From: Naegleria gruberi
Lineage: Eukaryota
Assembly: GCA_000004985.1 (NCBI GenBank)
Contig: GG738854.1
Length of the DNA: 64,000 nucleotides
Strand: one strand, 5' to 3'
A model generated the notes under the pieces. The model was not told the origin of the DNA, made no database searches, and saw only the letters and a program-made list of their open reading frames with translations. Within the stretch, counting starts at the first letter, position 1. The number at the start of each line of letters is the position of its first letter. Shown one piece after another: positions 1 through 47,719 of the stretch. The translations under genes and the position numbers were made by a program.

Positions 1-451
1 TTTTTCAAAAAATATTATAATTTTAAATAAGTTTTTGTATTAGAAATGCTGGGTAAATGTAGTGAGAGTGTTGATGAGATTCGTCCAATGTAGAATAAGT
101 TAGACGAATGTCAGATAGATCTGGTATTAATATTATGGTTGACTGATTCGTTGCATTGCATTCGAACTGGAAAGTTAGATCAATACAACGTAACCTTGTT
201 TTCACTAAAAAGAGATCTTGTTTTAAAAACAATGTTTCCAGTATACGAAACGTTTCTAATAAGAGATCTTGAACGAATCACTGTAAACAACATGAAAAAA
301 TTAAGGCAAATCTACAGTTTTCATTCTAAAAATCTCTAATCAAAATGCATTCAATCAATTTCTTAAACAATTTATTAATAGTTTACAAATATAACTGGAA
401 CTTTGAACAAAAGGTTTTTGGCGCGAATTTGTCAAGTTCATCCCAAAAAAA

Positions 452-1495
452 ATGTTCAAACATCAAATCGAAGGAATGATGTGGTGTTTGGCTGTTGGTG
501 ATGCCTTGGGCATTCCGTTTGAATGCAAAACTTATTCAGAGATTTTAAAAATGCGGGAAAATGCGGAGGAGAAATTGGAAAATCCATATAGGAAGTGTTG
601 TGGCCATCCGTTCATTCCTGATGATTTTGAACCGGGAATGTATACGGATGATACACAATTGAGTTTGGCCATGTTTCGTGCATTGGAAAGGTATGGACAC
701 AAGTTGAGTGATCAAGTAGAATTTGAGAAATCATTAATGCCCTTAATAGTTGAGGAACATGTCAAGGAATTTGAAAAATCAATTGTTGGTTGGGGAGGCA
801 CACGTGATGCTATCAAGAGGTTACAACAGAAAACACATTCGTATAAGGATTCGGGTAATGTTGGAGCTGTTGGAAATGGAGTGATTATGAAGTTGGCTCC
901 CCTCTTCTTGTTTTATTTCAGAGAATTGAAATTGGATGAATTGACAAGAGAGGAAGCTATAGAAAAGATTGAAAATATTTCAAATGAATGGTTGAATGAC
1001 CAAGTGACTGTAATTACAAAAATGACACATGACACTCAATCATGCATTGTAACCAGTTGCTTAATGATTAGATTTGGAATGTTAATTTTACTATATGGAA
1101 AGGAATTTATCAATTTCAAGAAGGAAATCTTTTCAAATTTATTGAAATATTGTAAAGAATTGGAAATTAATGATATAGCAAAAAGTATTACAACAAGAAT
1201 TCAAACTCTAATTGATAATTTGGATGATTTGAAAGATGACTTGACTCTTGTGAACATTACTAACGGAGGAACGTTTGAAAGTGTGAATAGCTTGATGATG
1301 GTTATTGGAATCGTCATGTCTTTGCAACCAAATCAGAAACCTTTCGAACTGATTGAAAGGGCAGCATATATTGGTGGTGATTGTGATTCTAATGCATCCA
1401 TGGTTGGTGGCTTGATTGGTTCTGTGTTTGGAAAGCAAATTATTCCAGATTCGTATATTAAGCATCTTGTTTTTGATTTTGAAATTTGTGAATAA
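452..1495 (+). CDS. ADP-ribosylglycohydrolase family protein (ARH/DraG-like)
   Basis: Single 347-aa ORF. The ATG at 452 follows an A-run (ccaaaaaaaATG) and the stop is TAA. The N-terminal LAVGDALGIPFE block and the C-terminal GGDCDSNASMVGGLIG block match the two signature regions of the ADP-ribosylglycohydrolase fold. Confidence 0.75.
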   Translation: MFKHQIEGMMWCLAVGDALGIPFECKTYSEILKMRENAEEKLENPYRKCCGHPFIPDDFEPGMYTDDTQLSLAMFRALERYGHKLSDQVEFEKSLMPLIVEEHVKEFEKSIVGWGGTRDAIKRLQQKTHSYKDSGNVGAVGNGVIMKLAPLFLFYFRELKLDELTREEAIEKIENISNEWLNDQVTVITKMTHDTQSCIVTSCLMIRFGMLILLYGKEFINFKKEIFSNLLKYCKELEINDIAKSITTRIQTLIDNLDDLKDDLTLVNITNGGTFESVNSLMMVIGIVMSLQPNQKPFELIERAAYIGGDCDSNASMVGGLIGSVFGKQIIPDSYIKHLVFDFEICE

Positions 1496-1600
1496 ATTAA
1501 ACTTGTCAACAAATTGTAATTCTCATCCACTTCACACATGTCTTCCTAGAATAACAGAAGTACGTTTCGCAAAGTTTAGCTATGCTTATGAAGATTAAAT

Positions 1601-4600
1601 TCAATGTAACGTGCCAGTATCACTGTTGGAATTTTGGTAATTATTAAAATTATGTAATGATTGGAGAGGAATCAATCGGGGGAGATCATCGATTTTTTGA
1701 CATTGTGATTGTAATTCTTCCAATAAATCAATAATTTCAATAAATTCAGGTCTTTGTGAGGAATCCTGAGCCCAACATCTTTCCATGATTTGAACATATG
1801 ATTCTAAAAATCCAATAATTTCACTTTTTCCAAGATTTTCGATATGTTTCTTTGTAAAATTGTGTTCAATCCACTCATCAATTTGTTTTTCACTGAATGA
1901 TTTTGCATGCAACAGTTCTGGCCTGTGTCCTTTTGCAACTCTCATCAATATTTGGAAAACAGTTGTAGAGTTATCAATTTCATTTGAAAATGGTAATATT
2001 TCATATAATAGCTCCCACATTATTACTCCAAATGAATAAACATCCACTTTTGTGCTTTTACCTTTGTGATTATCTGAAAGTAATTCCTATAAAACAAAGT
2101 TCAACAAATCTATTTTCAATAGATACTTACAGGTGCCTATTGTATTTGTTAATGAATTCACAATAAAATACTTCCAAACTTACCATATAGAGTAAAGTTC
2201 CAACATTTGAGGTCATGGTTGCTGAATTGTTTGAAACAATTTTGCTCAATCCAAAATCTCCAACTTTTGCGTTCATAATCTTGTCCAATAAAATGTTCCC
2301 TGGTTTCAAATCTCTGTAATATTTTTGTTTAGGATAGAGTAAAACTCATAACATACCTGTGAATGATTTTGTGAGGTTTGATAGAATGTAAATATATCAA
2401 TCCTTTGGTGATATCAATCAAAATTTTAAGCTTGGTCTCAAATCTCATAATTTCTCTTCCTATTCTTGAGTTATAAATTGCCTTTTCTAGACTTCCATGT
2501 TCCATATATTCAACAACCATATATTTTCCATTGGTTGTGAGCGAAACTCCATAACAACTGACAATACAGGGATGTCTCAATGAGCTCATTAACATTGCTT
2601 CATTCTCAAACTCCTCATCATTTGAATCAGTTTTCAATTGTTTGATGGCAACATCAGTTCGATTCCACTTGGCATGGTAGATCATGCCCATTGCTCCTTC
2701 ACCAACTCTTTTTAGAATATTAATTTCTGATATTGGAATAATGTATTGTTGTCGTTTTTTTTGTGAATTAAGGATTTCCTTAGTATTAGAAGAATCTATT
2801 CCACTGTTAATACTATTTGAAGATATTAGTGGGGTGAATTCACTCTCAAATATAAATTCATTATCTGTAAACTTCCTTTCAATTTCCTTTTCAGCACGTT
2901 CTTGCTTCCTCAATTTCAACAATTTTCTTGTTATGAATATTCCTGCGTATAAAACTGCTCCAAATATAATTAAGAGTGAAATGAAACCTAATATTGCAGA
3001 GGTTAAAATAATTGCTATTGGAGAATATTCACAAATATAACCATTATCAAGCTTGTTTAAAATATAACTGTTTGGGCATGGAAGTATTTTCACTTTGACA
3101 ATTTTCTCAATGTCTGGAGTTACTATGATTGATAGAGAAAATTCTTTGGATATTTGACTTGGAAATATTTGCAAGCTCACTAATATTGTACGATTGTCAA
3201 ATAGATTATTTTGAGAAACAGTTCCATCTTCAATATTCGTTGGTCGAATAATCAACATATTCGGTTCCATCAATGATGAGGCAGTTTGATTGTAAAGATC
3301 TTTCACTAATACATTCATCTTGAATGATTCTCCAGGGTATATTTCAAGTTCATTGCCATTTTCTGTATTTCTTTCAAATTGAACTTCAACAGTTTGCAAA
3401 GGTGTCGCCACATTATTGCCATAGCATAGAGCATTATTTCCAACTATTATTTCGCCATTAACGGTCAACTGAGAGTAAATGCACCCTCCAGCATAAGCTG
3501 CAAGATTATTTTCACAAATTATATTCTTAATATAGGGAGTTACCGTGTTTATCCACATGGCCCCACCATTTTTTGCCGAGTTGTCATTAAAGGTAGAGTC
3601 AGTAAAACGAATTGAGCCAAATAATTTAGTTGTTTCAACATAAATTGCTCCACCTAAATCAGCAGTGTTTTTGGTAAATTGTGAATTTCCAATGTCTAAA
3701 TCTGTTCCATAAAGATAGAGTGTAGATCCTTTGCTTCCACCTGTATTTTCAATAAATTTACAATTTGTAATGGAAAGTGAATAGGACAACATTGTTTGAT
3801 CAAAAAATTCTAATAAAGCAGTGCCTGTTGTGAGTCTATTTTCAATAAACAAGCTATTGCGTATAAGTATTGCGATAATGCTAATAGAAGGATTATCTGT
3901 AAAGGATAAAAACCTTCCCCTATTATTTGAAACTAGACAGTTATTAATTGTTAAGGAGTCAACCATTTGTAATGAAAGCAACGCATTAGAGGCTGTATTA
4001 TTTTTAAAGGAACTGTTTGAAATTAGTATTCCAGAAATGCCAATCATTTGAAAGAGCATGTAATATTCAGTGTTTTCAATAGTTACTCCATTCAATTCAA
4101 TATTATCCAATGATATGAATAAAGCATTTGATAATACAGTAGAATTGATAATTGAAACTCTATTTCCAAGATTGAATTTCGAGATGGTCAGTAAGGAGCT
4201 TAATTTTGAGGTCCAAATAGAATTACCAATAGTAAATGTCTCAAAATTATCCATGTGAAAAACTCCATTAATTCTGCAATTATTAAATAGAACTGTTTTA
4301 GAATTTTTCAAATTAATAATTACTTCCATATTAGTGTTGAAAACGAATAGGTTTAATACTCCCACAATACTGAAATAATAATAAAAATTACAATCAATAA
4401 TCTCCAATTTTCGAATTTCCGAATGCATGACGACTGCATCTCTTGTTGTGCAATTTAACAATTTGAAATGTTCAATTCCATTATATAGTAAGAATTCCCC
4501 ACCAATGAATCCAAACTCTATTGTAAATGCATCAATAATTGCGTATGCCTGTAAATTGCCACGAGTAGTGAACAATTGCTTGTCCTTTCCTTTCCATATC

Positions 4601-5040
4601 ATTTCGAATCGATTTGCGTATTTGGAAAAATCGAAATTTGTTTCATAGCTTCGCATAAGTCCATTAATTACAATCACCATTGTGAAATTATCCAATTTTT
4701 TACCTTGATTAATTATTTCTGCCAATTCATTGTTTGCTGCTTTTACAATTTGACTCGGAGAGGAACATGGTTGATGCTCATCCCTACACGTTGCATTCAA
4801 ATCATCAACATTAGGAAATTCAGAATCTAAATAATAAATAGCTGAATATGATGATGAATTAATTGTATTGTTGGCCATTACATATTGATGATGCTCTTGT
4901 TCTTGTGGTTGGAGTACTACTACTAATTCATTATTAGCTAATATCGACTCGGACTTTGTTATTATCATCATTATCATCATCATAATAATTAAAAGCCTAA
5001 TAAATCTAAGAACCTCCGAAGAGGTGGTTATCTTGTGCAT
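1601..5040 (-). CDS. Receptor-type protein kinase with Pmp-like (GGA[ILV]/FxxN) beta-helix ectodomain, paralog 1
   Basis: Exons (minus strand) are 5040..2357, 2313..2184, 2136..2131 (microexon) and 2086..1601, with introns of 43, 47 and 44 nt (GTATGT..CAG, GTAAGT..TAG, GTAAGT..TAG). The N-terminus has a signal/anchor (LLIIMMMIMMII). The ectodomain carries repeated GGAIY, GGAMW and GGCIY plus FTKN and FNDN motifs. The transmembrane segment is IAIILTSAILGFISLLIIFGAVLYAGIF. Kinase motifs present are GEGAMGMIY, VAIK, HR|DLKPGN (split by intron 1), DFGLSK, LLYM-AP-ELL and DVYSFGVIMWELL. The first ATG is at 5040; the ORF-track 'M' at 5052 is a TTG. Confidence 0.7.
2131..2136 (-). other. Candidate 6-nt microexon (GCACCT, Ala-Pro of the kinase APE motif)
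   Basis: On the minus strand the sequence reads ...CTATATG|GTAAGT...ACAATAG|GCACCT|GTAAGT...TTTTATAG|GAATTA. The six nucleotides are flanked by a perfect acceptor and a perfect GTAAGT donor. Including them gives the canonical GTLLYM-AP-ELL motif. Skipping them is also in frame but leaves the kinase without the AP of APE. Confidence 0.45.
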
Positions 5041-5328
5041 TTTGTTTTTCAATTTTTGAATTTGATTATCCGTCGGAAGCCTTCATATTCTCTTTCTCTC
5101 TCTAGCTGTGTATTAAGATGGATTCAATAGATTGTCTGATAATTTCTTGAAGTTATCTTAAATTGTAATAGAATTTGTGCTTATTGAAATTTTTATTTTT
5201 TAATTTTATTTGATGATTCGGAAAGTTTTTTTAAAAAAAACTTGCTGCTTTAATTATTATTGAATCCTTAATTAGCCTTGAAAACTTTGAAAGTTCTCCT
5301 GTCAGAGCATGTCAACCCATCAAAAAAA

Positions 5329-5802
5329 ATGTCACAAGATAAAGAAGACTCTCTCACTGCATGGTTGAACAATATTGTTGTTGCTCTAGGTGAAGAAGAT
5401 ATAAGCAATATTAATCTTTTGCCTGTCACTGTCAGTGAGACATCAACAAACCAAACAGTTCCTGCAGGTGATAAGAAGGTTAGAAAGCGAAAGGAAACTA
5501 AACAACTACCATTCCCAAATATTCAATCAACAGACATTTCTGATGGACTTGTTTCCACTAACAGGCGAGTTTCGAATAATAACAAGTCGAGCAGCAAGGA
5601 CCAACAACAAATAGATTTGTTAAAGATTGGAAAGGGTTTCGTTCAACACACCACTTGGACTACTTCATCTGTTCTCCATGGGAAGAGAAAAGAAACTCTA
5701 GAAAATATTAGAAACTCAAAGAAGAAGAAGAAAGAAACAGTTGACCCACACGAGACGACCAAGATCTGCAATGCAAATGTGGCTCGCACATTGCATCAGT
5801 AG
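5329..5802 (+). CDS. Hypothetical basic, Ser/Lys-rich protein (possible nuclear protein)
   Basis: 157-aa ORF starting at an A-run ATG (caaaaaaaATG). It contains a KKVRKRKETK basic cluster and low-complexity S/N/K tracts. No recognisable domain. Confidence 0.3.
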   Translation: MSQDKEDSLTAWLNNIVVALGEEDISNINLLPVTVSETSTNQTVPAGDKKVRKRKETKQLPFPNIQSTDISDGLVSTNRRVSNNNKSSSKDQQQIDLLKIGKGFVQHTTWTTSSVLHGKRKETLENIRNSKKKKKETVDPHETTKICNANVARTLHQ

Positions 5803-5914
5803 TTTGACCCACTCGTTAGCGTCTTAACTATTCCAAATTTGTAAAATTAAAGGTTTCTAATAGAAATTTATTTCAAATTTAATTTTAAAAAATATTTTGC
5901 AATTTTAAAAAAAA

Positions 5915-7213
5915 ATGAATAATAATCAAAGATTTGATGTTTTGATTCTCTCCACCATTTTTTCATTTCTTCCCGCCAAAAATTATTTACTGAAAATTTG
6001 TCTTGTTTGTCGAGATTGGAATTTTTCAAATTCTTGTAAAATTAATAATCATGAGAATAATAACGATCAGAATTATCCTCTTCCGATGGTTGCACTTGAT
6101 TTATCCAACCGTAAGATTTTTGATGAAAAATTAGTAAAATTACTTGATGAGCAATTGGATCGGTATGATTGGAGAAATTTGAGAATATTAAATTTGGAGA
6201 AGAATCTTATTGAACGTATTGGTTGTTTGATGGAGACAGGGAGATCGTTGCAATTGAGTAATTTGAGAGTTTTAAATTTGAATGAAAATCAAATTGATGA
6301 GGAGTGTAGTTTGTTGTGTTGTGGTGTGGAAAATTTTATCAATTTGAAGGAATTATATTTGAGAACGAATTTTATTAGAAATATTGTTGTGAGAACGCAA
6401 TTTCCTGCTTTGGAAACGTTGGATTTGAGTGGTAATTGTATTGGAAATCAGGGAGTTGTTTCTTTATTGAAGGATGGTCTTGAAAATTTCCCAAACTTGC
6501 GAAAATTAGTGCTTTCTAATGTGGATATGAAGAGTTTGGATCCATTGCTCATGAATTGCCACAATTGCCCAAAATTGAAATGTTTAGATTTTAGTAATAA
6601 TTTTATTTATAACTCACAAACGATTCATTATAAGCATTTTAATTTTCCATTATTGGATGAGCTATATTGCTCAGCAGTTAATTCTACAGCTCGTTTACAA
6701 GAATTAATTGTGGAAAAATCACTTGATTCCTCCCTCACAACACTTGATTTATCACAATGTTATGTTGGAGAAGTTTTTTTGAAAGCTCTTTCTTTGGGAG
6801 AATTCAAGAAATTGACTAAACTCTTACTATCTAATAATGAAATTGGAAATGAGGAAGTTCTGCTATTGGGAAAACTTGACATGCCGAATCTAGTTCATCT
6901 CAATCTTGATGATAACCTAATTGGATTGGAAGGCGCTAACATCATTTCCAATTTTACTAATTTTCCTCAATTAGAATTTCTTTCCTGTAGAAAATATCCC
7001 GCAACAAAACACAAAACATTTGAAAGTTATTCATTGAATAATTTTCTTGAGGATTGCAGGGAGGAATTGGGAGAGGAATTAGAGGAGGAAGAAGAAGATT
7101 GTGAAGAGGATTATTATGGAGGTTTACGTAATTCGAAAGGAAAGGAAATTAGTTTTGTATCGTCGTTTGTTAGCTTTACTTGGACAAAAAGTGATTATGT
7201 CTATGTCTATTAA
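5915..7213 (+). CDS. F-box-like / leucine-rich-repeat (RNI-like) protein
   Basis: 432-aa ORF starting at ttaaaaaaaaATG. The N-terminus has an F-box-like segment (LILSTIFSFLPAKNYLLKICLVCRDW). It is followed by about ten LRRs of the LxxLxLxxNxI type (LRVLNLNENQI, LETLDLSGNCI, LTKLLLSNNEI, LVHLNLDDNLI). The C-terminal tail is acidic (EEEEEDCEED). Confidence 0.65.
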   Translation: MNNNQRFDVLILSTIFSFLPAKNYLLKICLVCRDWNFSNSCKINNHENNNDQNYPLPMVALDLSNRKIFDEKLVKLLDEQLDRYDWRNLRILNLEKNLIERIGCLMETGRSLQLSNLRVLNLNENQIDEECSLLCCGVENFINLKELYLRTNFIRNIVVRTQFPALETLDLSGNCIGNQGVVSLLKDGLENFPNLRKLVLSNVDMKSLDPLLMNCHNCPKLKCLDFSNNFIYNSQTIHYKHFNFPLLDELYCSAVNSTARLQELIVEKSLDSSLTTLDLSQCYVGEVFLKALSLGEFKKLTKLLLSNNEIGNEEVLLLGKLDMPNLVHLNLDDNLIGLEGANIISNFTNFPQLEFLSCRKYPATKHKTFESYSLNNFLEDCREELGEELEEEEEDCEEDYYGGLRNSKGKEISFVSSFVSFTWTKSDYVYVY

Positions 7214-7289
7214 TGGTTTAGAATAGCAACTGACTGCTATTTTGGTTTGTTTATTCCATCAAATAAACCGACATTTGACTTTAAAAAAA

Positions 7290-13126: not shown

Positions 13127-14206
13127 TTAATGCTTGTCTGTGATGAGATAGGATAATTGGAGAGCTTCGTTCTCTGTTAAAATTCCATCACCATCCAAAT
13201 CGTAAGGTGAGAGAACTCCCTTGCAAATGTGGTAATGTGTCTCCACTTCAGAGACTTGTATTTTACCTTCCACTTTCAATTGTTCAATTGATTTTCTGAC
13301 TCTCTTTTTCCATTCTTCCAATTCATGCAAATCTTCAATATTAGGAATGCTTAGCATTTGGTATTGATTCATTTTGGAGAAACCAGTTTCTGTTTTCTCA
13401 TGTCTGAACTTTTCCAAATCTGCTAAAAAATCCTTCTTCACCATTGATATGGGTGGAGATTCTACATTATCAATATAATTGCTCAATTTTGGAATTACAT
13501 CCTTCTTCCACTGATCAACTGACTTGTTCATTACTTCTTCGTATAATTGTTTGAAAATCCAAGCTTTGATATTTTGTCGAACAAGGTATTGAGGGTGAAT
13601 TAATAAATCAAAAACAGTTTCCAAATCCAACTTGTTGAGATAAACTGCTGCATAGGCAACACAAGCTCTATTACTCAGAAGTGAGTCCTTTGTTTCTATA
13701 TTTATGAGATTTCTCAAGAGTGGTTTAATTTCCTTATCTATCACAACAGTTTGACATCCTACACAAGCACTTAATTTCAAGGCATAATTTGGTGTATCAA
13801 TTGAACTGTTTGGCAATTTAAGGGCTCTTTTGATCATATCTGCTCTCATTGTTTCCGAAAGAATAACAAACGGATTCATCAGTAAATTACAAAGAGATTG
13901 GAAAGGATAAAATTCATTATCAGAAGATTCTGGCAATTTTCTAGTTCCTCTCAAATCAGCAGATATAAACCCGTGATCTATTATTTGCTTGAAAATATCC
14001 TCATGGTCTTGTAACGTTTCCTTCGTTAATCCTCTCCTCAACTTTTGCATATTATCAACATCTCTTGCCCTCAAAAATCCCATAACACTCTCCTCACAAC
14101 CACTTCCAAGATCCGACAAGTTTGCTCCCGAAGAAAACATTGATAAGGAATCACTCACCGACGATGATGACGTTAAGTGTTCGCTGTTATTGTTATTGTT
14201 GCTCAT
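13127..14206 (-). CDS. Hypothetical protein with a C-terminal EF-hand-like calcium-binding loop
   Basis: 359-aa single ORF from ATG to TAA. The N-terminus is N/S-rich. The C-terminal DLDGDGILTENE sequence fits the DxDxDGxIxxxE EF-hand loop. No other recognisable domain. Confidence 0.5.
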   Translation of the reverse strand: MSNNNNNSEHLTSSSSVSDSLSMFSSGANLSDLGSGCEESVMGFLRARDVDNMQKLRRGLTKETLQDHEDIFKQIIDHGFISADLRGTRKLPESSDNEFYPFQSLCNLLMNPFVILSETMRADMIKRALKLPNSSIDTPNYALKLSACVGCQTVVIDKEIKPLLRNLINIETKDSLLSNRACVAYAAVYLNKLDLETVFDLLIHPQYLVRQNIKAWIFKQLYEEVMNKSVDQWKKDVIPKLSNYIDNVESPPISMVKKDFLADLEKFRHEKTETGFSKMNQYQMLSIPNIEDLHELEEWKKRVRKSIEQLKVEGKIQVSEVETHYHICKGVLSPYDLDGDGILTENEALQLSYLITDKH

Positions 14207-14301: not shown

Positions 14302-14310
14302 GGCGCCAAA
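14302..14310. promoter_or_regulatory. E2F-like GGCGCCAAA motif upstream of the gene at 13127..14206
   Basis: The sequence aaaaaaGGCGCCAAAttt reads TTTGGCGCC on the other strand. It lies about 96 bp upstream of the minus-strand ATG at 14206. It belongs to the recurring GCGC-core motif described in the findings. Confidence 0.25.
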
Positions 14311-16678: not shown

Positions 16679-18863
16679 TTATTTCTTCTTTGGTATTTCA
16701 CCATTAGATGAGGAAGTTCTCTTTCTCTTCTTTTCATAGGTTGAGTTATTCGTTTCAGTAGTGCTTAGTTTTGATTCATTTTTTTCTGGATTGGAAACAG
16801 TATCACGTATGGAAGGAAAGAAATATGATCTGTAATCTTGTGTATCGACTATATCTGTAATGCCAAGTAATGCCAAGCATTCTCTTGTGGTAGGTCTTTT
16901 CTTTCTTTCTATGGCCACCATTTGTTTAAGCATGTCAAATAGCATACTACCCTTATTGGGCTCTAGCTCGTGGCATTTGATTGAAATTGTTTGCCATATT
17001 TCATCAGCAGTATTTTCCAACCGTTTCTTATCTATATCATTTTCTAATATCAATTCAATAAAAACTAAACCAAGAGAGTAGATATCAGTTTTTGGATGAA
17101 TAAAGTTTTTCCCTGTGGATTCCTTTTCAGGAGCATTGTAAGAAGAGGTTCCAGCAGTTGACTGTATCCACAAGTTTACGAATTTGCAAGTATCTCCATC
17201 TTCAATGTCAAAACGCTTGGCTAGTTCAAAATCAATGAATTTACAAAAAACGTTTGGGCCTTTTTTTTGGTCGACATTTGTTTCCTTAATAACTGTCGAT
17301 TTTAAATGATCCTCTTCTAATATTATAATATTACTAGGTTTAATGTCATTGTGTATTATCTTTCTTGAGTGAATGTGGTCAATTTCAAGCAGCAGTTGAG
17401 AAATAATGTGCAATTTTTCTTGGTGTGATCGTTTGTTAACAGTATTGAGCTCGGTTCCTGCAATTGATATCTCGATATGTTCTTTACAAACTACATCATT
17501 CACAGTTACTCTGTCATGAAGAAGAAATATATTTCCAATATCAATCCATTCTGGTTTTTCCGAAAGGAAAATCTTTACAAACACTGGTTGAGAGGAATGA
17601 TCAAGCACACCATAGAACATGTCTTTGGTAGCAGTACCTCTTCCTTGACCAGTACTTATCTCGAAAAGATACTCCTGAAGTGTGATAGTTGTTGTAAGCA
17701 CTGTGTCTAATGATGTCGTGAGATGAATCACCAACTTATCACCCTGTGAAATATCAGATCCACTTTCAATAGAACTTTCCATTCTCTTTCTTCCCATAGA
17801 CTCTTTGGTAATTGTGTCGATAAGAATGTTCTCTTCAAAATTAGCTTGTCTACTTGCCTCTAGTAAGAATGAAATAAATGTGTCAAGTAATTGTTTCTCC
17901 TCTGTCGTTGAAGGGTCAAGTGGAAACATCCCAACATTAAATAATTGATATTTGTATCTTTTCTTGATACGTGAAGTTTGTGGAACAAAAGCTTTAATTC
18001 CCAGCACACGAATAAACCTCTTCTCTGTCAGTAATCCATAAGTAACCAGTTTGTCGATTTGGATTGCATGTTTTTCAGAGGGCTTTATGTTTTTAAGTAA
18101 GGTGCCATGAACCATTCTTATTAGAGCCACTACCTTCAAGAAATCAGGGTGAGCAGTCTCGAAGTCTACCTTGTCCTCATGCCCAAACTTTAGACGATTG
18201 AAAGGAACGTCTTTCTCATTCTTTAATTCTAATCCGGAAAAATTATCAGGTGAAATAGTGCCCTGCAGTAAGTTTGCTACTTCCTTGCTGAGATATCTCG
18301 AGTTTTTTATCAAATTGCTGATAGAAACATTTCTAAATTGTTCTGAGCTCTATAATGTTTGGTTAAAAAACTTACTCATTAATTTTGAAGCCGTAGAGAG
18401 TAGGTAGTTGTAATAGTTTGTGGTATTTGGTGTTATTGGTATGAAACATTTCCTCTCCCAAAGAATGCATTTTGGTTGGGTGTAAGCAATCGGATAAAAG
18501 TTGAAAAGCTGCACTCAAATCTATCAAGTTGAAAACATCGACAACATGCCCAAATTTTTCAATGACCAAACGATAATGTGTGGAAATGGCTTCATTGTCC
18601 TGTTTGAGATTGTCAATGAGGCAGAACAATTGTTCTATGAAATTTCGAAAGTCGGTTATCACAGATACTTTTTGTATTGCAGCATGGAGGTTGTGATCCA
18701 AATGATGATGACGATCTGAAAGCCAAGTTACTTGCAATAAATCCTCTGCAATACAGAGTTTGTGGTTGAATTCTTCGGAGCCTTCTCTCCAGATATCTTT
18801 GCGAAGATCGAGGTTCTTTTTCTTGTGGAGTTCCTCAAGCTTTTCATCAAAGGATTTTGTCAT
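16679..18863 (-). CDS. Atypical protein-kinase-like protein (possible pseudokinase)
   Basis: Exon 1 is 18863..18376 (MTKSFDEKLEEL...). A 43-nt GTAAGT..TTTAG intron spans 18333..18375. Exon 2 is 18332..16679. The C-terminal kinase-like fold carries HNDIKPSNIII in place of HRD and IDFELAK in place of DFG. It retains GTSSYNAPE and DIYSLGLVFIELI. No glycine-loop GxGxxG was seen. Confidence 0.6.
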
Positions 18864-18879
18864 TTTTTTTATCAGGCAA

Positions 18880-18895
18880 TTTAAGCGCGAAATTT
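18880..18895. promoter_or_regulatory. Palindromic TTTAAGCGCGAAATTT (E2F-like GCGCGAAA) motif about 20 bp upstream of the ATG at 18863
   Basis: An exact GCGCGAAA octamer, the reverse complement of TTTCGCGC, sits inside an AT-rich palindrome in the 5' flank of the minus-strand gene. Confidence 0.3.
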
Positions 18896-29951: not shown

Positions 29952-31429
29952 GTTGTTATAGTTCTTCTTAATAATAGGGATGAAAATGTTTTTCTATTGG
30001 AAAGAGTTTGATCTTGGCAGGACGAATATCGTGGAGGTGGTTAATAATTATTATATTGGACGAGTTCGTGGAATGGTGTTGAGATCAGAGTAATATACAC
30101 AAGAGAGAGAGAGGAGGAATTAAAGTTGTTTTTTTTGAATGTGCTACTTTATCTCAGTAAGGGTGAGTGTTTAAATTGTGAGGAGGATTACACTGAATGA
30201 TTCGCTTAAATGCAACAACAAACTGCTTACTTGTCTCAATTATCAAGAGAGGTACCACCTAAAAGTACGTTCAAGGAATTGGAGTTAACAGGAGCGCGAG
30301 ATTTGAGTGCAAAAATCTAGCGCTACTGTGTTTTACTGTAATTTTGCACCATTTACTTTGTTTTACAGCGCTTAATTTGTGCATTCAAAATGCTAGAAAT
30401 GATTGTGTCATTGAGTAATGAGTCCAAACGGTTTATTTCAACGGTTAGAGTGGTGGTGTCAAACGAAAATATTATGTGGAGAATCTTCAAACGAAAACAT
30501 TACTTGGAAGAATGATGATATGTAGGACAATCATGATAAGTATTAATGAGTTTTGCAAATAATTGAGTAATGGCTCAATTCTTTGCTCAACTAACGCAAC
30601 AATTAATGGCTTGGTTGTTGAACAAACTCAGGAACACAAGGAACAAGATTATTGGAAGGTTAACTTTATACACTGAGATCTTGCGTTGGAGTTTTTGCAC
30701 CAATTTGTTGCCATTACGGTCGCATATTTTCCATTATTTCACTAGGTGAATCTATTAAGCACACAAAAGATTTTTCACACAATGAAAATTTATCAACATA
30801 TCAAATGAATGAGACAAATACCGTGAGTGGAATCATCAGCTTAATAGTTACAGAAGATTGGACAATTTATTTCTTTGGAAACAAGTGGCTTGGTAATGAA
30901 GTTGGGACAAGATGAAGAAAATTCACCTCAAAAACAAATTTTCCTCATCTGACCGATCTGTAAGGATCAAATGTAATAGGACTATTCCACAAGTTCATCA
31001 TTATCTCCCTCAAGAGCTCTTCAACTGGTCCTTCAGGTACTGGTGTTGTTCCTTCTGATCCTTCTGCTACCATTGCAGAGAAGGGTAAGATAATTTCCTA
31101 TTGTTCTGTCTTTGAGCTTTAGATTTCTTGGTGTTGGATTTGCCATTACGTTGTGGTCTCGAACGTTTTTGAATGGAGGTGAAAGTTTGATGAGTTTGAT
31201 GAGTTGTAGTATGAGCGATCATACAGAGGATGAAGAATTTGAATGAACAACAATAACATGCAGATTATCCAGAAGAATATTGCTTTGCGATGAAGCATCT
31301 TGTTCTAGGCTACTTTTTTCGCCTGAAAAACAGGCAAAAAATATTTAGGCCAAAAAAAATAGCCTAAAATGTCTAGGCGCAAAATAGTAGGGTGCTTATT
31401 TGATGGACAAAAGTTCTTGGTGTTGCCTT

Positions 31430-32110
31430 GTATGTATTAATAACACCGAACAAATACACGTTCCATTATTTTCCACCATTAAGAAAAAATATTTCAGCCC
31501 AAACACACATTGGGAACACTTTGGTGATTTTCAGAGTGATTTCACCCCATGAATCCACCAAACTTTCACATCATCATCTCAACATCATCCTAATAGTATT
31601 ACTGGTAGTATTTTTTATTATTGGATTGTGATTATAAATTTGGAATTTAATTTTCACTTGGGAAAAATTCAAGTTGGTAAACCATCATCGGAACAACTTC
31701 CAACCATCATCATTGTTATTTATCATCATTATAATAGTAATATTTGTGGAAATAAATCTGATAATAGTAATATTTTAGTGAAATTCAATATTTTCACTAA
31801 AATCATCATCACTGCCAGATTCATATGGTAATTTGGAAAACTTTCAATCTAGTATTGTTCAGCATGGTCGATTCCATCAGGTAAAATCACTTCCGAACAT
31901 TTTCCTATTGGTTATCATCATGATAGGTTCATGTATATTTTCAACATGTACATGGACCATAACTCAACATGTACTTCACCAACTTGGAAAATGTCTTTCA
32001 TAACTACTATTCAAATACATAATAAACAATATATTTATTATCAGTTTTTCATCATTTTGTTGTTTTACCAACTTCGGAATATTCATGATAACATATCATG
32101 ATTCATGCCA
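31430..32110 (+). repeat. Dispersed non-coding repeat, copy B (paralog of 14690..15480)
   Basis: Same-orientation alignment to copy A, sharing the same three blocks listed there. It sits inside a 3.4-kb gene-free interval. Confidence 0.5.
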
Positions 32111-33405
32111 AAAGTACATAGCCAAACTTCTTGAAACATTAATAAACTGTTATTAGTATTATTGTAGATGTACCATATCAAATATTTCGTTTTATTTCGA
32201 TGAGATCATAAAGATCTTAAATTTCTCTCTAAACATGCAAGTTCTCAGCCTAACCAGATGTTCACCATGTCAAAACATCAAAATAATAAATTTCATTGTA
32301 CTTTTGTATCACACATTAATTTATTGTGTTAAATTCATTGAATTGGAGATTTTAAATTTTTAAAAACTAATCTGTGATTATTTACCAATTAAATATACTT
32401 CTTTAATACTTGATAATTCATAAAATCCTAGTAGATATTGAATAGGTTCATAAAACAAGATATTACACATAATGGCTCTAAATTCATGCTAATAGAGCTT
32501 GTTTAATGAGACTTATCATATTAATGATATGTTGTCTAATTGGATTCTATTTGTGCAAGGCCTAATTCCATCCCTAATATAGCAGACTTTTAGGGATGGA
32601 TAATTTTAATGGAATCTATCCTAGAAGTATTTTTCGCCTGGAAGGTTCATACCAACGAATTTAACTGCCTGGGTCTTCATGCGAGTTTTTATCGCCTATA
32701 ACACATCTTCATGGTGATTATGAAGGGTCATGTTTTCTAATTCGGTTGTTGTGGTTTTGTCAATACTGAGATAGTCGGGTTGGACCTTAATTGGAAAATT
32801 TGTAAATGCGGAAGAACCTGATTTACAATTGGAAGGATGAGCAAGCGTACTTTGTGGGTTCATACCAGTAATGAAATTGGAGTGGGCATTTGGTGAATCT
32901 GTAACTGTAACTTGGGAATAGGGGCTGACCGGATGAGTTGAGAAGGTTGAATGGAGTTGGGAGGAGTTGGAACGGGGAAGGGAGACGAAATTGTCTATTG
33001 GATTGAGTATTGACACATGTTCTATTTGTCTCAATTGAAGAAGCTATTAAATCGTGATGGAATTGATTTGTGAACATTAAGGAAGGTGAAAGACAGATTA
33101 TCGTTTTTGAGGGTTTGACTATGGCGTTTTGGAGTTGTATTACAACAACTATAATCAACATTTCATTCCTTTGAAAACATGTGTAGAGGAGAGGGAGGAT
33201 ACATGTGTAGAGGCAGTTCGATGGGAGTTTAGGAAAATGTTGGATGTGGAAAGGAGAATGGTTGAAAATTTAGGAAAATTGTGAATTGTGATTGGAAATG
33301 TTGTTGATTGTAATGTGACAGGTGTCATTTCGGATGCTTTCCTTACATTCATAATTGGCAAGGTATTGAATTGATTCACCTACTAGAAAAATCAACACGA
33401 AAAAA

Positions 33406-38046: not shown

Positions 38047-38825
38047 TTAGTTCAATAATAAAATAGACGAAAGTTTTTTGTTCGAAAGATTTTAACTTCA
38101 CCACCACTGAAGATTTCTTACTCATTTACATATCAGAAGATACCAACACTCAGTTTTCGATATTTTACAAGAGGAACTTTCATAGTTTTGATAACTGAAG
38201 CAATTGTGAATACCACCAATATTAGACAAGAACCCAGAAGAACACCACTAACATCTTCTACAAACAACCACAAATTCCATGCCAATTTCTGTTCGGCCGA
38301 ATCGTCTAGATTTGTACAGATGATAACAGAATGAAATAGAACTTACAGTATCATGACTTTCAGCGTAGTCCATTCTTAAATTTTCCTATTGCCATAATAA
38401 TCCAATGATATTGGAAGGTAAGGATCACTTGGAATCAATAAGGATCTTGTTCTCAGTGCCATACTACTCAATTATTAAGAGTTCATTGTGAATTGGAAGC
38501 GCAATATTATCACACACAAGATTATGTCGGACATTTAAGGTATTATACTCTGTGTGAGAGGGAGAAATATTAAGCCACTGTACAGATCGGTCACCTACCC
38601 AACCACTATCAAACTCCACTTAATCAATGTCCAACGAATGGAGAATTAGTTTTGTGTGTGGTCATGAGAAGAGACATCAGTTTTAATGGAGGAAATGTTT
38701 GGCGGGAATGTTGTGGACTTGTTAATTTGTGCTTGCGAGATGATTCAACACCAATCGATTTAAAGATGTGTGTTGAATTGTTTGTGGAATCATCAAAAAA
38801 AAACAAGCTTAACACACAACTCAAT

Positions 38826-40226: not shown

Positions 40227-40321
40227 ATAATAAATTGTTAACAACAAAAGAAATGAATTGTTTGGATTTATGAGTTTCTAATTGTTTCTAATTTTAATTC
40301 CATTCAAAAAAAGTTGAGGAT

Positions 40322-40975
40322 TTAATATTCAATTTCTTCAAAATCAATTTCATCCTCTTGAACACATGCGCCCATTACAACCATAGGTGGTACCAAGATT
40401 GAGTATTGGGTTGTGAATGCAACACAATTTCCTTTTTGTGTATTCGAAAGGAAAGATTCCATCGAATCAACTTTGTAAACATTCTTATTGCAAACATTAC
40501 AATATCTAATTGATGAGCTTTCAGGAGTACAAGTTAATTGATCATAATTGAGTGGACATTTGTAAATCCATTCACAATTTTCAATCATTTTTTCATCATT
40601 TCCTGATGTTACAAAATTAGGAATGTCCAATTTAAACAAATCAGAGTTGACTGAATTGTTATTGCCATGTAACTTGACATGTTGTAATCTTCTTCTCAAG
40701 AGATGCATCCAATTCTTAATATTCAACTGCTTTTCAAATTTTGGATAATAAGCAAAAACGAGCGGTTTCCAAATCAATTGCTGAACTCGTTCAAAATCCA
40801 AGGTTTCATCTTCACTTTCCTTTTTCTTCTCACCAATTTTCTCCCTTTTCACATTAAAAAACAACATTAATAATCGACTATTACACAACGACAAACCATT
40901 CAATTGTCTCACATCCATAAATTGTGCAATATTGATCATCAATTCCATCGGCAAATCAACCTTCATCTTTTCCAT
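40322..40975 (-). CDS. Hypothetical F-box-like protein
   Basis: 217-aa ORF from ATG at 40975 to TAA. The N-terminal LPMELMINIAQFMDVRQLNGLSLCNSRL is F-box-like. A short upstream ORF (41132..40963, MPLFRNFFKQ...) overlaps in another frame and may be a uORF or a missed exon. Confidence 0.4.
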   Translation of the reverse strand: MEKMKVDLPMELMINIAQFMDVRQLNGLSLCNSRLLMLFFNVKREKIGEKKKESEDETLDFERVQQLIWKPLVFAYYPKFEKQLNIKNWMHLLRRRLQHVKLHGNNNSVNSDLFKLDIPNFVTSGNDEKMIENCEWIYKCPLNYDQLTCTPESSSIRYCNVCNKNVYKVDSMESFLSNTQKGNCVAFTTQYSILVPPMVVMGACVQEDEIDFEEIEY

Positions 40976-41264
40976 ATAAATTCCGACATGATTTTTGCAG
41001 AATTTTGTTCAACAATTCGTTGATCATTCTTGGCAAGTGGTGCTTGTGTACGAATCTCCACTTGTGAAATATCATCACTCGCATCAGCAATGTTACTTTT
41101 TGATGGCTGCTTGAAGAAATTTCTGAATAACGGCATTTTTTTGTGTGTGAAATTCAAGTTGTGAGTTCATGGAAGTTCAGCTGACTAGTAAGTACGCGAT
41201 GGGATGAATAAGAAGGAATAGGCATTGTAAAAGGAGTAAATTTAGTTTGTATAGGTGTGGATTT

Positions 41265-42587: not shown

Positions 42588-42728
42588 TTTTTTTGAAGTT
42601 TAATTTTATTGATGAGTTGGAATCAGGTTAGAATCGTAGAAGAAGAACTCTTAATCCATTACGGAGTTTGGTTATTAATCAAAATTGTTTTTTATGTTTT
42701 TTCTCAGGAATGCAAATTGTTGGCATAA

Positions 42729-44018
42729 TTAGTTGTGGATGGCGTTGGCCAAACCAATTCTCATATTTTGCTTATCATAAACAGTGTAGAAGAGAGATTG
42801 GAAGAGAGAACCAAAGATCCATTGACCAGCTTTGAGTTGATCGGCCTTATTGATACCACCTTGACAGACAGAAGGTCCAAAGATTGGTGGCTTGTTTTCA
42901 ATGACAAAGTTATGTGGTTCAATAGAATATTCATTGCCACCAATGACAAAAGTAAAGGTTGGAATTCTAGAGAATTGAATTTGAGAACAATCAGCTGGAA
43001 GACTGACATTGGCAAAAAGTTGCATAGCAGAGAAGGTGATTGGATCAGTAAACATGGCATAAGCACTTGTATCAAAAGTAGCAAGACACTTGACTCCAGT
43101 ACCAGGACCACATGTTAAATAATTGACCAAATTACCATTAACCTTAAGACCATCGAATTCAATCATCCAATTCTTTGAACCAGTTGGAATTGGATAGAAA
43201 TTCATTGGACCCTTATAGTAATCAGTTGAGTAACCACCCAAAACCAAAGCTCCTTTACCCTTTTGCTTTTGTTGATTTGGATTCTTGAGTTCACTCAAAT
43301 AAATAGAAAAGACATAGCTGCTAACTAGTTTTTGTTGCACAACATAATCCATAATGGATGGGAATGAATAGACATAGTTTGCACTTGGTTCTGGACTCAA
43401 ATTCAAACCAAGGAATCCATCAAATTGCAAAAAGCTTTCCTCAAAAGAATCATCACTCTTAACCAATTCAGCAAAAGTAACATTCTTAATTGTCAAATCA
43501 GCTCCATTATCCAAAATAAGTCCCATTTGATCATTGGCAAGTGTTCCAAAGAATTCAAATTCTCCCAAATACCAATCAACTTGTCTTCCATCTTTCTTGT
43601 AAGTGCTTGACTTGGAAGAATCATACTTTGGATGTCTGAAACATTGCATTCCACACAATGTAGAAGTAACAGTCAATAATCCTCCATTAGTATTAACCAT
43701 AAGCTTGAAAGTATTACTCTTATCTGAACCAAAATGTACATTGGCATAATAATAGAACTGTTTTCATTGACAATTCATCAAAATCATAATAAATTCATCA
43801 AGTAACAATAAGTGTCATCATCATTAATATTAATATAAAAATTTAAATATTTAGCAACGTACATTGTTATAATCCTGAAGAGGAACAACCATCAATGATT
43901 CACCACTCACTCCCTTCATCTTCTCCTTTGAAAAGTTTCTCATTGGAATGGCTCCCGACACACAGACAGCCAAAGCCAACACGATGGCTACAGAAATTAT
44001 GGCAGTAAATTGACGCAT
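42729..44018 (-). CDS. Pepsin-like (A1 family) aspartic peptidase homolog, predicted catalytically inactive
   Basis: Exon 1 is 44018..43863 and carries the signal peptide MRQFTAIISVAIVLALAVCVSGA. A 105-nt GTACGT..AACAG intron spans 43758..43862. Exon 2 is 43757..42729. The N-terminal lobe aligns with pepsins: QDYNNFYYYANVHFG...FKLMVNTNGGLLTVTS against QYYGEI.IGTP.Q.F.VIFDTGSSNLWV. DTG is replaced by NTN in the first catalytic motif. In the second, the sequence reads ATFDTSAYAMF, with DTS in place of DTG. Confidence 0.6.
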
Positions 44019-44322
44019 TTTTTTTTGTGTTTGTTTTCTTCTCTCGGAGGGAATTTCGGCGACAACCTTAATAAGGTGAAAATAAAGTTTTGAGAATTTG
44101 AGCGAAAAAATTGTTCATTTTGATTGAAGATTTTTTAAAGGTTCGTTTTTGGGTATGCAATATTCTGGAACTACTGACCTTTCGTTTATTTACAATGAAT
44201 GTGAAAAGAAAGTGAACTAATTCTAATACATAAATATTATTGTAAAGAATAAATATTATCATTTTACAATAAATATTTAAGAGAGTTTCACTTCCTTTCT
44301 GTGAGGTTCTTTTATGGAAAAT

Positions 44323-44336
44323 TGGCGCGAAAAGGA
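44323..44336. promoter_or_regulatory. TTGGCGCGAAAAGG (E2F-like GCGCGAAA) motif about 30 bp upstream of the ATG at 44366
   Basis: An exact GCGCGAAA octamer in the 5' flank of the acyltransferase gene. Confidence 0.3.
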
Positions 44337-44365
44337 TCAAAAAAAATTCAAAAAAAAATACAAAA

Positions 44366-46123
44366 ATGATTCTCTATCTCTTGCTCTTTCTCACGGTTGC
44401 TCTGATGGTAGCAGCCTCATTGTTGCTCCCCTTCGTAACGAGTATACAATATCCGAAGAGGAATCGTTTTCAATTAAAACAAGCACAACATTTTCCGATA
44501 TGGTTGGTTGTATTGGTAGAGTTTAGGAGGAGAGTTGTGTTTTTATTGGATTTTATTGTTCATTATATTCATGTAAATTATACAATGAAGCCACAAGAGT
44601 TGAGTCCGAAAGTTGGAGAGTATGGAAAATTGGATGTTGAAATTGTCAAACCAATTAAAGATGACACTCCACAACAACATTTTGGAATGTTATCACCTAC
44701 AGATGCTCCTTTTCCACCTTCACATTATTGTTTTCAATTTGAAGGATTTTTGGATAGAAAATTGTTTGTAGAATCCCTTTCGGAAGTTTTAAAGCACATT
44801 CCTAGATTGGGTTCTAAATTGGTCGAGTTCAAATCTTTGGATGAATTGAAGAGAGGAACTGCTGGATGGTTTGATGAGTTGGGTAATATGGAGAGAAGAA
44901 TTGTTGAAGGCAGACTTTTGAATGCTAAAAAGCCAATAACACTTTTTGATTTGAGAGATGCCCAATTGGAAGTTTGTTTTGCTGAAGATGACACTATTAA
45001 AACAAATGATGAAACTGGATTATTGACAGCCACTGATTTGGCAAAGAATATGCACATTCTTTCTGTGTTCGGTGTTAGAGGACCAATCAAGGTTATCCAC
45101 TCCGAACCAACAGATCCACTCACAAGACTTCAAGTTACTTATTTACGTAAAGCAAACAAGACTGCTCTCACCATTTATATGGATCATGCTGTTGGAGATG
45201 CTTCTTCCATCTCAATGTTCATGCAATTGTTGGGTGATATTTTGAGTGCAAAGCAAACTGGAAAGGAATTCAAACCACGTAATCTTCCAGTTTGCAATCC
45301 TGTTCCTATCTTTAAATTTGGATACAATAAGGAAGCAGAAAAGTTAGATGATTTCCTATTCACTTATTATGATCCTACTGCATGCTATTCCTTCTTCAGA
45401 GCTGAAGTATTCAAATATCTAGATCAAAACTCTAAAAATCCAGCAAAAATTATTGCCAAAGAAATTACTGTCAATAAGAAACAATTGGATCAATTGAAAA
45501 AGAAGATTTTGAACGAAACTCCTGAACTGAATGATGTTGCCTTCAGCACCAATGACATGTTAAATGTTTTACTTTTGAGATCTGTTGCTTTTGGAGACAA
45601 GATTAATAGAATTGGCAGCGAAAAGTTATTGACATTGAGATATGTTGCTTCATTTAGAGAACGTTGTGATTATATTACTAGTAATTATTTTGGAAATGCT
45701 TTTGGAATTATCTTTGATAGTGTATCCAAGAAGGAATTGTTGGAAATGACTACTGGTGAATTAATCCTCTTAGCAAAGAAGAATACTGAAAAGACTGTTA
45801 ACAATCAAGGTTATTGGGAAACTAAATTGGAAGAAATGAATCAAAGATATTTCGACCCTCTCCAAGTTGACTTTGGTTTCCCTGCCTTTGAAGGAAGTGA
45901 AAACTTTATGGGAGTCACAAATTGGGTCAAACCAATGTTAGAAATTGGTTCTCACTTCCAAGATAAATCCTATCTGGGTATCAGTACTCTTTGCATGCCA
46001 TTCCCTCATGTAAATAAGATTCTACCAACCTCAACAACTGATCCAGATGGTGGTGTTAGATTGGTGCTTTCCTTGTATGAGCCTGAATACTTGTATTTCG
46101 TTGGAGAAATTCCAAAAGTTTAA
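44366..46123 (+). CDS. HxxxD-motif acyltransferase (CoA-dependent acyltransferase superfamily; WS/DGAT-, BAHD- or condensation-like)
   Basis: 585-aa ORF from an A-run ATG (caaaaATG) to TAA. The N-terminus is a signal-anchor-like MILYLLLFLTVALMVAASLLLPF. The catalytic-type motif is YMDHAVGDASS (HxxxD). An alternative internal start sits at 44585 (MKPQELSPK). Confidence 0.55.
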   Translation: MILYLLLFLTVALMVAASLLLPFVTSIQYPKRNRFQLKQAQHFPIWLVVLVEFRRRVVFLLDFIVHYIHVNYTMKPQELSPKVGEYGKLDVEIVKPIKDDTPQQHFGMLSPTDAPFPPSHYCFQFEGFLDRKLFVESLSEVLKHIPRLGSKLVEFKSLDELKRGTAGWFDELGNMERRIVEGRLLNAKKPITLFDLRDAQLEVCFAEDDTIKTNDETGLLTATDLAKNMHILSVFGVRGPIKVIHSEPTDPLTRLQVTYLRKANKTALTIYMDHAVGDASSISMFMQLLGDILSAKQTGKEFKPRNLPVCNPVPIFKFGYNKEAEKLDDFLFTYYDPTACYSFFRAEVFKYLDQNSKNPAKIIAKEITVNKKQLDQLKKKILNETPELNDVAFSTNDMLNVLLLRSVAFGDKINRIGSEKLLTLRYVASFRERCDYITSNYFGNAFGIIFDSVSKKELLEMTTGELILLAKKNTEKTVNNQGYWETKLEEMNQRYFDPLQVDFGFPAFEGSENFMGVTNWVKPMLEIGSHFQDKSYLGISTLCMPFPHVNKILPTSTTDPDGGVRLVLSLYEPEYLYFVGEIPKV

Positions 46124-46171
46124 TTTTATTAAGACTCGATCAATGTAAATAAAAAGAGCATACCTCAAAGA

Positions 46172-47479
46172 CTAGTGTTCATATTGCTGCTCTTCATTAT
46201 GTTGCGTTTCATATTCATCCTCATCATCCTCATTCTCGTAATAGTAGTATTCATCAACATTTGAATCACTCACTGCTAATACTCGTCCAATTTTGTCTCC
46301 AAAATTTTTGTTCTTTGGTTTGAAGAATCGTTGCACATCCTTCAAAGGATTGAAAATCGAGACAATGAAAATAACAAAGATAAAGATTGCCAAATTATAC
46401 ACCATATGGAATATGTACATGCTAAACTCCCACAACACACTGAGGGGAATACAAACAAAACCAAGGCATTGTGTAATTAAGGCAATACTTAGTCCAACTT
46501 GAAGAGTGAGGGCCTTCCTCAGAGCTGATTGTTTCACTGAGAACGAGGCACTGTTGGTTGACTTGAGCTCATTATTCATTGATGATAATAATAATCGTCC
46601 AATTATTGTCAGCATGACAGTAATACAAATTGAACTGCCTAGAAAGATGAGACCTCCACATAAGAATAATGCCAATAACAAATATCTCAATACTGCTGAA
46701 CTGGCTCCAAAAGGAGAGGACATTAACCCAGCAAACACGAATACAATAATGGACAAGATGATAAATATTCCAGCAATTCCAATCAGTAAGAAAACTAAAA
46801 ATCTCCTATATCTCTTATAGTTTTGCATTGATAACTTTTCAATTACTCTGGTGGTATCCAAACTATAATTGTTAAAATTGATGAATTAATTTAAATAAAC
46901 CTACAATATACTGCAAATATGGGACAGTATTAAAATTTCAATATAAATGACAAAAATTACTGCCACTCGATCAATTCCCTTCACTATTTGATTTGCCATT
47001 TTAGAAATTTCCTTATTGGTAATTAGCAGTGTCAGTTCTGAACCCATCCTCGATAGCATATTGAAAATCATACCAGCACATAATGCAAACAGTAAACCGT
47101 AGAGAATTTTGTGATTCCTCCTCATATTCTTCAATTGAATGAAAAAGCTAACAATAGAAAATGCCAATAGCGAGATGAAAAGTGCTGTGAATGGAATATT
47201 CGAAAAGACAACCATCTGTTGGTACAACCCATAAGTCATTCCAGGAGCAGTTCCATTCTGCACTCCAGCTGCCAATTCGATTATCAAATCTTCTCCACTC
47301 AACAAATTATTCACAATTGTCAATCCACCATCAATTCCAATACTATTAATACCAGTATTCCACTGTTCAATCCAAACACTCGCTATAATTAAAAATCCCA
47401 TCATGATCATTATTAATCCAATCAACCGGAATTTCCCATCAAACAATGATCGATCCAATCGATCTTGAATTTTCCACAT
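46172..47479 (-). CDS. Hypothetical polytopic membrane protein
   Basis: Exon 1 is 47479..46905 (MWKIQDRLD...). A 42-nt GTAGGT..TTATAG intron spans 46863..46904 and removes the in-frame TAG. Exon 2 is 46862..46172. About eight or nine hydrophobic segments span both exons. The C-terminal tail is acidic (DEYYYYENEDDEDEYE). Stop is TAG. Confidence 0.5.
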
Positions 47480-47697
47480 CTTATTTAATAAATTATATAG
47501 TAAATTAATATAAATTTCTATTCCACTGTTGCCTCTCAGCACAAAAACACTCGAATGGTCTATTTTCCGAGTCTTGTGTGTGTTGCAGAGTTTCAGAAAG
47601 GCTTGTTTTTCTGAATGATGCTTGAATACGACGCGAAGAAGTAAAACAATTTTTTTTACAAGTGTTCTACTAATTACAGTTCCTGATTTGTGAAAAG

Positions 47698-47719
47698 GCG
47701 CGAAAACAGTTTTTGGCGG
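47698..47719. promoter_or_regulatory. GCGCGAAAAC plus TTTTGGCGG pair (E2F-like) in a divergent promoter region
   Basis: An exact GCGCGAAA (47698..47705) and a nearby TTTGGCGG (47712..47719) lie between the minus-strand start at 47479 and the plus-strand start at 48038. Confidence 0.25.

Follow-up and report, generated by a model that had tools for sequence, protein, structure and literature searches.

E2F-type sites in the 5' flanks of genes in a 64-kb window of the Naegleria gruberi genome

In a 64-kb stretch of nuclear DNA from Naegleria gruberi (64,000 nucleotides of contig GG738854.1, hereafter the window), we found a family of short E2F-type motifs concentrated in the non-coding 5' flanks of genes, and our counts, all of which refer to this one N. 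gruberi window, confirm that the enrichment is real. Sites of this family stand at 6 of the approximately 28 promoters or putative starts in the window, about one-fifth. We judge it somewhat better than even (a probability of roughly 55%) that E2F-family factors bind these sites close to the start codon, and that by this means an E2F-DP heterodimer, restrained by Rb and possibly antagonised by DEL, would tie the expression of some genes to growth state. The presence of E2F sites at promoters is textbook biology, expected wherever E2F and DP exist, and what is new here is only the documentation of E2F-type promoter sites in a heterolobosean. Almost nothing is known of promoters and gene-specific transcription control in Naegleria or Heterolobosea, and we found no account of promoter motifs for either in the literature searched.

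Using dinucleotide shuffles as the background for whole-window counts, we observed three exact copies of GCGCGAAA (18885-18892, 44325-44332 and 47698-47705) against 0.16 expected, and three copies of GGCGCGAA (at 420, 44324 and 47697) against 0.09. The consensus TTTSGCGC is matched five times where 0.55 matches are expected, a count reached in none of 100 shuffles, and all five loci are perfect TTTSGCGC when read on the appropriate strand; the looser TTTSSCGS occurs nine times against 2.99 expected. The sequence-only reading that first drew attention to the motif had proposed that fewer than one chance copy of such an 8-mer should occur in the window, and its coordinates hold except at two sites (18886 and 44326), each placed 1 bp too high.

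We then compared sequence classes, using a first-order Markov model for each, and observed that the excess is confined to upstream DNA. Upstream non-coding sequence (6.8 kb) contains five TTTSGCGC matches against 0.089 expected (Poisson p 4e-8) and seven TTTSSCGS matches against 0.47; the corresponding figures are 0 against 0.38 and 2 against 2.1 in coding sequence (49.6 kb), and 0 against 0.04 and 0 against 0.29 in other non-coding DNA (7.6 kb). All five TTTSGCGC copies thus lie in the non-coding 5' flank of a start codon, and all nine TTTSSCGS matches fall within -236 to +104 of one (permutation p<5e-5). The two matches in coding sequence are compatible with chance. The earlier description of the copies as lying in short 5' intergenic spacers is correct as to the 5' flanks and too general as to length, the spacer that holds the copy at 47698 measuring 558 bp. 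Listed with their genes, and with distances measured to the ATG and not to the transcription start site (TSS), the sites and the two coding matches are as follows.

417..427, plus strand: E2F-type site TTTGGCGCGAA, 24 nt 5' of ATG 452, reading TTTGGCGC on the sense strand of the gene.
452-1495, plus strand: ARH3-like ADP-ribosylglycohydrolase gene, start confirmed by an identical annotated protein.
14302..14310, minus strand: E2F-type site TTTGGCGCC (plus strand GGCGCCAAA), in sense orientation, 95 nt 5' of the annotated ATG 14206.
13127-14206, minus strand: NAEGRDRAFT_64581, an uncharacterised protein with an annotated start.
18885..18892, minus strand: E2F-type site TTTCGCGC (plus strand GCGCGAAA), in sense orientation, 21 nt 5' of ATG 18863.
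18375-18863 (exon 1), then 16679-18347, minus strand: kinase gene, kinase domain from Pfam.
38698..38708, plus strand: E2F-type site TTTGGCGGGAA (minus strand TTCCCGCC, the E2F7/8-preferred form), 117 nt 5' of ATG 38826.
ATG 38826 (MTEENIKKFSWEEI...): likely true start of a cytochrome-b5/fatty-acid desaturase gene recognised by its Pfam domains, placed by the beginning of the b5 domain and not by annotation.
44324..44332, minus strand: E2F-type site TTTCGCGCC (plus strand GGCGCGAAA), in a 347-bp divergent spacer.
ATG 44366, annotated: acyltransferase-like XP_002680270, 33 nt from the 44324..44332 site.
ATG 44018, minus strand: aspartyl protease with a signal peptide, 305 nt from the 44324..44332 site.
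47697..47719: a pair of sites sharing a divergent spacer of 558 bp, TTTCGCGCC at 47697-47705 (minus strand) and TTTGGCGG at 47712-47719 (plus strand).
ATG 47479, minus strand: multi-pass membrane protein gene, 217 nt from the paired sites.
ATG 48038, plus strand: FHIT-like HIT hydrolase gene, 318 nt from the paired sites; the placing of this start and of 47479 is putative, following the first ATG and the AAAAAAAATG context.
553..560, minus strand: weak-consensus match TTTCCCGC, in coding sequence about 100 nt 3' of ATG 452.
5970-5980: weak-consensus match TTCCCGCC/TTTGGCGG, in F-box coding sequence about 60 nt 3' of ATG 5915.

Because the motif had first been picked by eye, we ranked every 6- to 8-mer in upstream DNA by its Markov p-value. 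GCGCGAA ranks first among the 7-mers (4 observed against 0.06, p 6e-7, approximately 0.005 after Bonferroni correction), and GGCGCGAA ranks first among the 8-mers (p 2e-7, approximately 0.008 after correction). A chance cluster, or a non-functional pattern chosen post hoc in a single window, would fit the manner in which the motif was selected as well as its absence from the one orthologous promoter examined and the lack of enrichment in the related-species loci described below; however, the signal survives correction over all 7-mers and over all 8-mers, every copy lies within the approximately 10% of the window that is 5' flank, and no shuffle reached the observed count, leaving this explanation very improbable.

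The flanks of the five TTTSGCGC sites do not align with each other, which indicates that the sites are independent and not copies of a repeat and rules out a dispersed repeat or miniature inverted-repeat transposable element (MITE) as their source. Together with their occurrence in both orientations relative to the gene, the unrelated flanks point to an element acting at the level of DNA. An association with non-coding RNA or tRNA genes was also ruled out, a search of the window having returned no Rfam or tRNA matches.

We also considered whether base composition could account for the excess. The window has a GC content of 34% and a CpG observed/expected ratio of 0.46 overall, with 0.42 in coding sequence, 0.70 in 5' flanks and 0.58 in other non-coding DNA. 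Upstream DNA is therefore less CpG-depleted, yet the excess of TTTSGCGC remains approximately 56-fold after upstream dinucleotide correction, and a CpG-island side-effect was rejected. As a separate observation, the class pattern fits methylation-driven CpG decay that spares promoters, and N. gruberi encodes DNMT and Tet enzymes.

The sites match the consensus of one family of factors. The in-vitro E2F consensus is TTTSSCGC, and E2F sites are typically found at core promoters (PMC3069401). Our family mixes CGCGC-core with GGCGCC-core sites and always retains the T-run, a combination that corresponds to the degeneracy of the E2F consensus and marks the sites as E2F-type and not as a CAMTA CGCG box. 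Consistent with the earlier suggestion of a canonical E2F match, every site is a perfect TTTSSCGC (TTT[C/G][C/G]CGC): five also satisfy the stricter TTTSGCGC, and they are joined by TTTGGCGG at 47712 and by TTTGGCGGGAA at 38698-38708, a sixth promoter site that had been absent from the earlier list. The same account had called TTTAAGCGCGAAATTT palindromic, which holds for its symmetric central CGCG and not for the sequence overall.

A different reader of GC-core DNA (CG-1/CAMTA-type, CXXC-type or lineage-specific) could in principle produce a coincidental likeness to E2F, and the weaker CpG depletion upstream (0.70) than in coding sequence (0.42) is compatible with CpG words marking protected promoter DNA. 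The CAMTA/CG-1 CGCG box, VCGCGB, resembles our sites in having a CGCG core and in lying at promoters. On neither strand, however, does any of the five sites fit it: four carry CGCG flanked as T-CGCG-C / G-CGCG-A, violating VCGCGB on both strands, and the fifth (14302) lacks CGCG, so that the flanking bases rule out the CAMTA box. The T-run followed by S-GCGC is specific to E2F, the excess withstands the dinucleotide correction given above, and no alternative factor was identified; we regard recognition by such a reader as quite unlikely.

Turning to the factors themselves, the E2F/DP homologue search that had been proposed as a check succeeded: N. gruberi encodes E2F, DP, DEL and Rb, which appear as NgruE2F, NgruDP, NgruDEL and NgruRB in the supplementary FASTA of Medina et al. 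2016 (PMC4862756). Database comparison confirmed NgruE2F as N. gruberi protein P0046, which contains the Pfam domains E2F_TDP (PF02319) and CC-MB (PF16421) and has orthologues in N. lovaniensis, N. fowleri, Willaertia and Acrasis. The recognition helix of NgruE2F has exactly the same sequence as that of human E2F4 (chain A of the E2F4-DP2-DNA crystal entry, PDB 1CF7). NgruDP matches human DP2 (1CF7 chain B) with an E value of 1e-28, and its helix, NIRRRVYDALNVLMA(L/M)NIISK, is nearly identical to that of human DP2. Both N. gruberi E2F and N. gruberi DP carry an intact winged-helix DNA-binding domain with the RRXYD motif, and NgruDEL is a DEL/E2F7-8-like protein with two DNA-binding domains. 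From this conservation we strongly infer that N. gruberi E2F-DP would bind these sequences, and the E2F interpretation of the motif as a whole is partly supported.

On this basis we propose that an E2F-DP heterodimer, and possibly also the two-domain DEL/E2F7-8-like protein, would bind the sites near the transcription start of the 6 promoters, with E2F-DP occupying the GCGC core and the T-run lying to one side. Under the control of an Rb-family pocket protein, these promoters would alternate between repression, in quiescence or differentiation, and activation, in proliferation, as happens in animals and plants. Since the genes downstream are metabolic, signalling or DNA-damage-related and not replication genes, the sites may couple a broader set of genes to growth state and not to S phase proper. 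As regulatory sites they are of an ordinary kind, probably labile in evolution.

Comparison with the E2F/DP sites of animals and plants (TTTSSCGC, as in the adenovirus E2, DHFR and E2F1 promoters) reveals an identical consensus, with a T-run and a symmetric SGCGCS core. The window sites resemble them further in being promoter-proximal, in occurring in both orientations and in including one promoter with a pair, and cognate E2F, DP and Rb are present in N. gruberi, with a helix that is identical for E2F and near-identical for DP. Unlike the animal and plant sites, those of the window precede genes that are not concerned with replication or the cell cycle, and the orthologous promoter of N. fowleri lacks the site. 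The atypical E2F7/E2F8/DEL sites are a further point of comparison, the E2F7-preferred form being TTCCCGCC (PMC3333892). The window holds two exact copies of TTCCCGCC (38701 on the minus strand and 5970 on the plus strand) against 0.19 expected, and N. gruberi has a DEL-like protein; one of the two copies, however, lies inside coding sequence, and the letters of a site do not distinguish an E2F-DP from a DEL target.

Fungal SCB and MCB elements (CRCGAAA and ACGCGT, bound by SBF and MBF) bear a similar resemblance, since the CGCGAAA within GCGCGAAA fits SCB, and the specificities of E2F and SBF are reported to overlap (Medina et al. 2016, PMC4862756). By contrast, SCB does not accommodate the GGCGCC-core sites at 14302 and 417, and SBF/MBF proteins are confined to fungi (PMC4862756).

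The closest parallel in a protist is Cryptosporidium parvum, whose E2F-like motifs DTTGSCGCCH and TTTGGCGGGAAV were described by Oberstaller et al. 2013 (PMC3734150), E2F-like being the most abundant upstream motif of that compact genome (PMC3734150). The two cases share a compact AT-rich protist genome, short intergenic spacers, functionally mixed downstream genes and the same motif variants, including TTTGGCGGGAA (38698 in the window). They differ in that the Cryptosporidium motif stands 5' of most genes in an organism with no Rb, whereas about a fifth of the promoters in the N. gruberi window carry a site and Rb is present. This parallel raises the main alternative, that the sites are a general start-proximal promoter element, perhaps bound by E2F but constitutive at unrelated genes and not part of an Rb-controlled cell-cycle regulon. 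Three of the sites lie just 21-33 nt from the ATG in a genome with a fixed A-run start context, the genes 3' of the sites are functionally heterogeneous, and the C. parvum motifs occur 5' of approximately 2,400 genes that do not share an expression pattern (PMC3734150), all of which would fit a general element. We nevertheless consider it unlikely, as the site is found at only about 20% of window promoters, ATG distances vary from 21 to 318 nt in both orientations and fit a positioned core element poorly, and Naegleria, unlike Apicomplexa, keeps Rb. A core-promoter or TSS element was the other possibility named in the sequence-only reading; a universal one would be expected to recur at the majority of promoters with constant spacing and orientation, and the window sites show neither the frequency nor the fixed placement.

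Several observations weigh against the proposed E2F-DP-Rb regulation. The genes 3' of the sites include no MCM, PCNA, RNR or other classic E2F target, the window itself containing no canonical E2F target gene. We further examined five loci from N. lovaniensis, N. fowleri, Willaertia and Acrasis (approximately 80 kb and 45 genes, three E2F genes among them), and across these TTTSSCGS occurs twice against approximately five expected, with one of the two in a promoter. The N. fowleri orthologue of the acyltransferase-like gene, FDP41_007150 (58% identity, in synteny with the aspartyl protease gene), lacks TTTSSCGS in the 170 bp 5' of its true ATG (L035:5779), and none occurs anywhere in this 13.6-kb locus (L035). 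The promoter of the Willaertia homologue (L036) likewise lacks an E2F-type site, the conservation test thus covering one orthologous promoter and this homologue. Nor did we observe an E2F site in the promoters of the E2F genes of N. lovaniensis (L001), Willaertia (L002) and Acrasis (L003), the sole match at the Willaertia gene lying approximately 45 nt inside its annotated coding sequence. The density seen in the window (6/28 promoters) is therefore not general across Heterolobosea and may be local or specific to N. gruberi.

Site turnover is common at such divergence, so that the lack of conservation weakens a functional role of the sites and does not exclude it, and E2F autoregulation through E2F sites is common in animals without being a defining feature. 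The single promoter-located E2F-like match in the approximately 80 kb of related-species DNA is TTTGCCGC at Willaertia magna L002 15210-15217, which lies 38 nt 5' of ATG 15256 of an MGMT-like (PF01035) DNA-repair gene. A more far-reaching reading holds that N. gruberi has widely recruited E2F-type elements to promoters, close to the starts of genes outside the cell cycle (approximately 1 promoter in 5), having rewired the ancient E2F-Rb module in its own lineage, perhaps in connection with its amoeboflagellate growth/differentiation switch. N. fowleri, N. lovaniensis, Willaertia and Acrasis would lack such an expansion, and we hold this reading to be doubtful.

Were the sites true E2F targets, they would supply a defined cis-element for studying the E2F-DP-Rb module in a lineage distant from animals and plants, would support the dating of this module, together with the sequence specificity of its binding, to the last eukaryotic common ancestor, and would offer a practical handle for regulated promoters in Naegleria. 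No general concept would change even then.

The gene map on which these assignments depend was assembled from open reading frames (ORFs), Pfam hits, annotated proteins and the regular AAAAAAAATG start context, and by this ORF-based map the window is gene-dense, with approximately 78% coding. ORF 452-1495 is 100% identical to an annotated N. gruberi ADP-ribosylglycohydrolase-family protein, and two other window ORFs are exact N. gruberi NEG-M proteins. Many kinases are present, as are two tandem PAS-cyclase genes, paralogues at 53289-58316 and 58516-63558 that encode TPR-PAS-adenylate/guanylate cyclase proteins of approximately 1,680 aa each. The A-run context (AAAAAAAATG) is strikingly uniform at about half of the 28 putative start codons (for example 452, 5329, 5915, 7290, 15920, 18863, 42587, 44018, 48038 and 48907); this uniformity helped us pick true starts and hints at strong constraint of a Kozak-like or 5'-UTR (untranslated region) kind in the N. 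gruberi genome.

Two of the site-bearing genes have features of their own. NAEGRDRAFT_64581 has a copy of at least 90% identity, NAEGRDRAFT_76267, on a separate 44-kb N. gruberi scaffold, which is either an allelic haplotype or a recent duplicate. The kinase gene has an apparent, very short GT...AG intron of approximately 26-28 nt at 18348-18374 on the minus strand, its exact 3' splice site being uncertain. Scans of JGI metagenomes with the acyltransferase-like protein recovered no related loci, and with the kinase they recovered distant kinases only (24-35% identity) and no close relatives with promoters.

Within the N. fowleri locus L035, a reverse-transcriptase-bearing retroelement insertion lies in the spacer (620-5610) that separates the orthologues of the aspartyl protease and acyltransferase-like genes. 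It is flanked by direct repeats, AATAAACCCAT(C/T)CCTG(A/T)ATTTTTTT(T)CCTTGTTTAGAG, at approximately 835-870 and 5597-5630, and a tRNA-like fragment (GGCCGAGTGGT...GTTCGAATCC) that drew no tRNA call from ARAGORN lies at approximately 650-715. In the same locus, the annotated FDP41_007150 begins 74 codons too late, ATG 5779 being backed by a 593-aa Logan member.

Elsewhere in the window, 30000-33400 (3.4 kb) contains no long ORF, which is unusual given the 78% coding elsewhere, and yielded no Rfam or tRNA match; two short 28-bp two-copy tandem repeats lie inside it at 30459-30513 and 31326-31384. Copies of CHR (TTYGAA) exist near the E2F-type sites, although a hexamer so frequent in AT-rich DNA does not lend itself to interpretation. 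A further word, CTTAAT, often within CCTTAATG, is found in sense orientation at -45 to -105 of 9/28 starts (for example 18911 on the minus strand, and 5267 and 53233 on the plus strand), and its reverse form ATTAAGG occurs in three more promoters. With 18 of the 62 window copies of ATTAAG/CTTAAT falling in the approximately 9% that is upstream DNA, CTTAAT is a candidate second promoter element, perhaps TATA-like.

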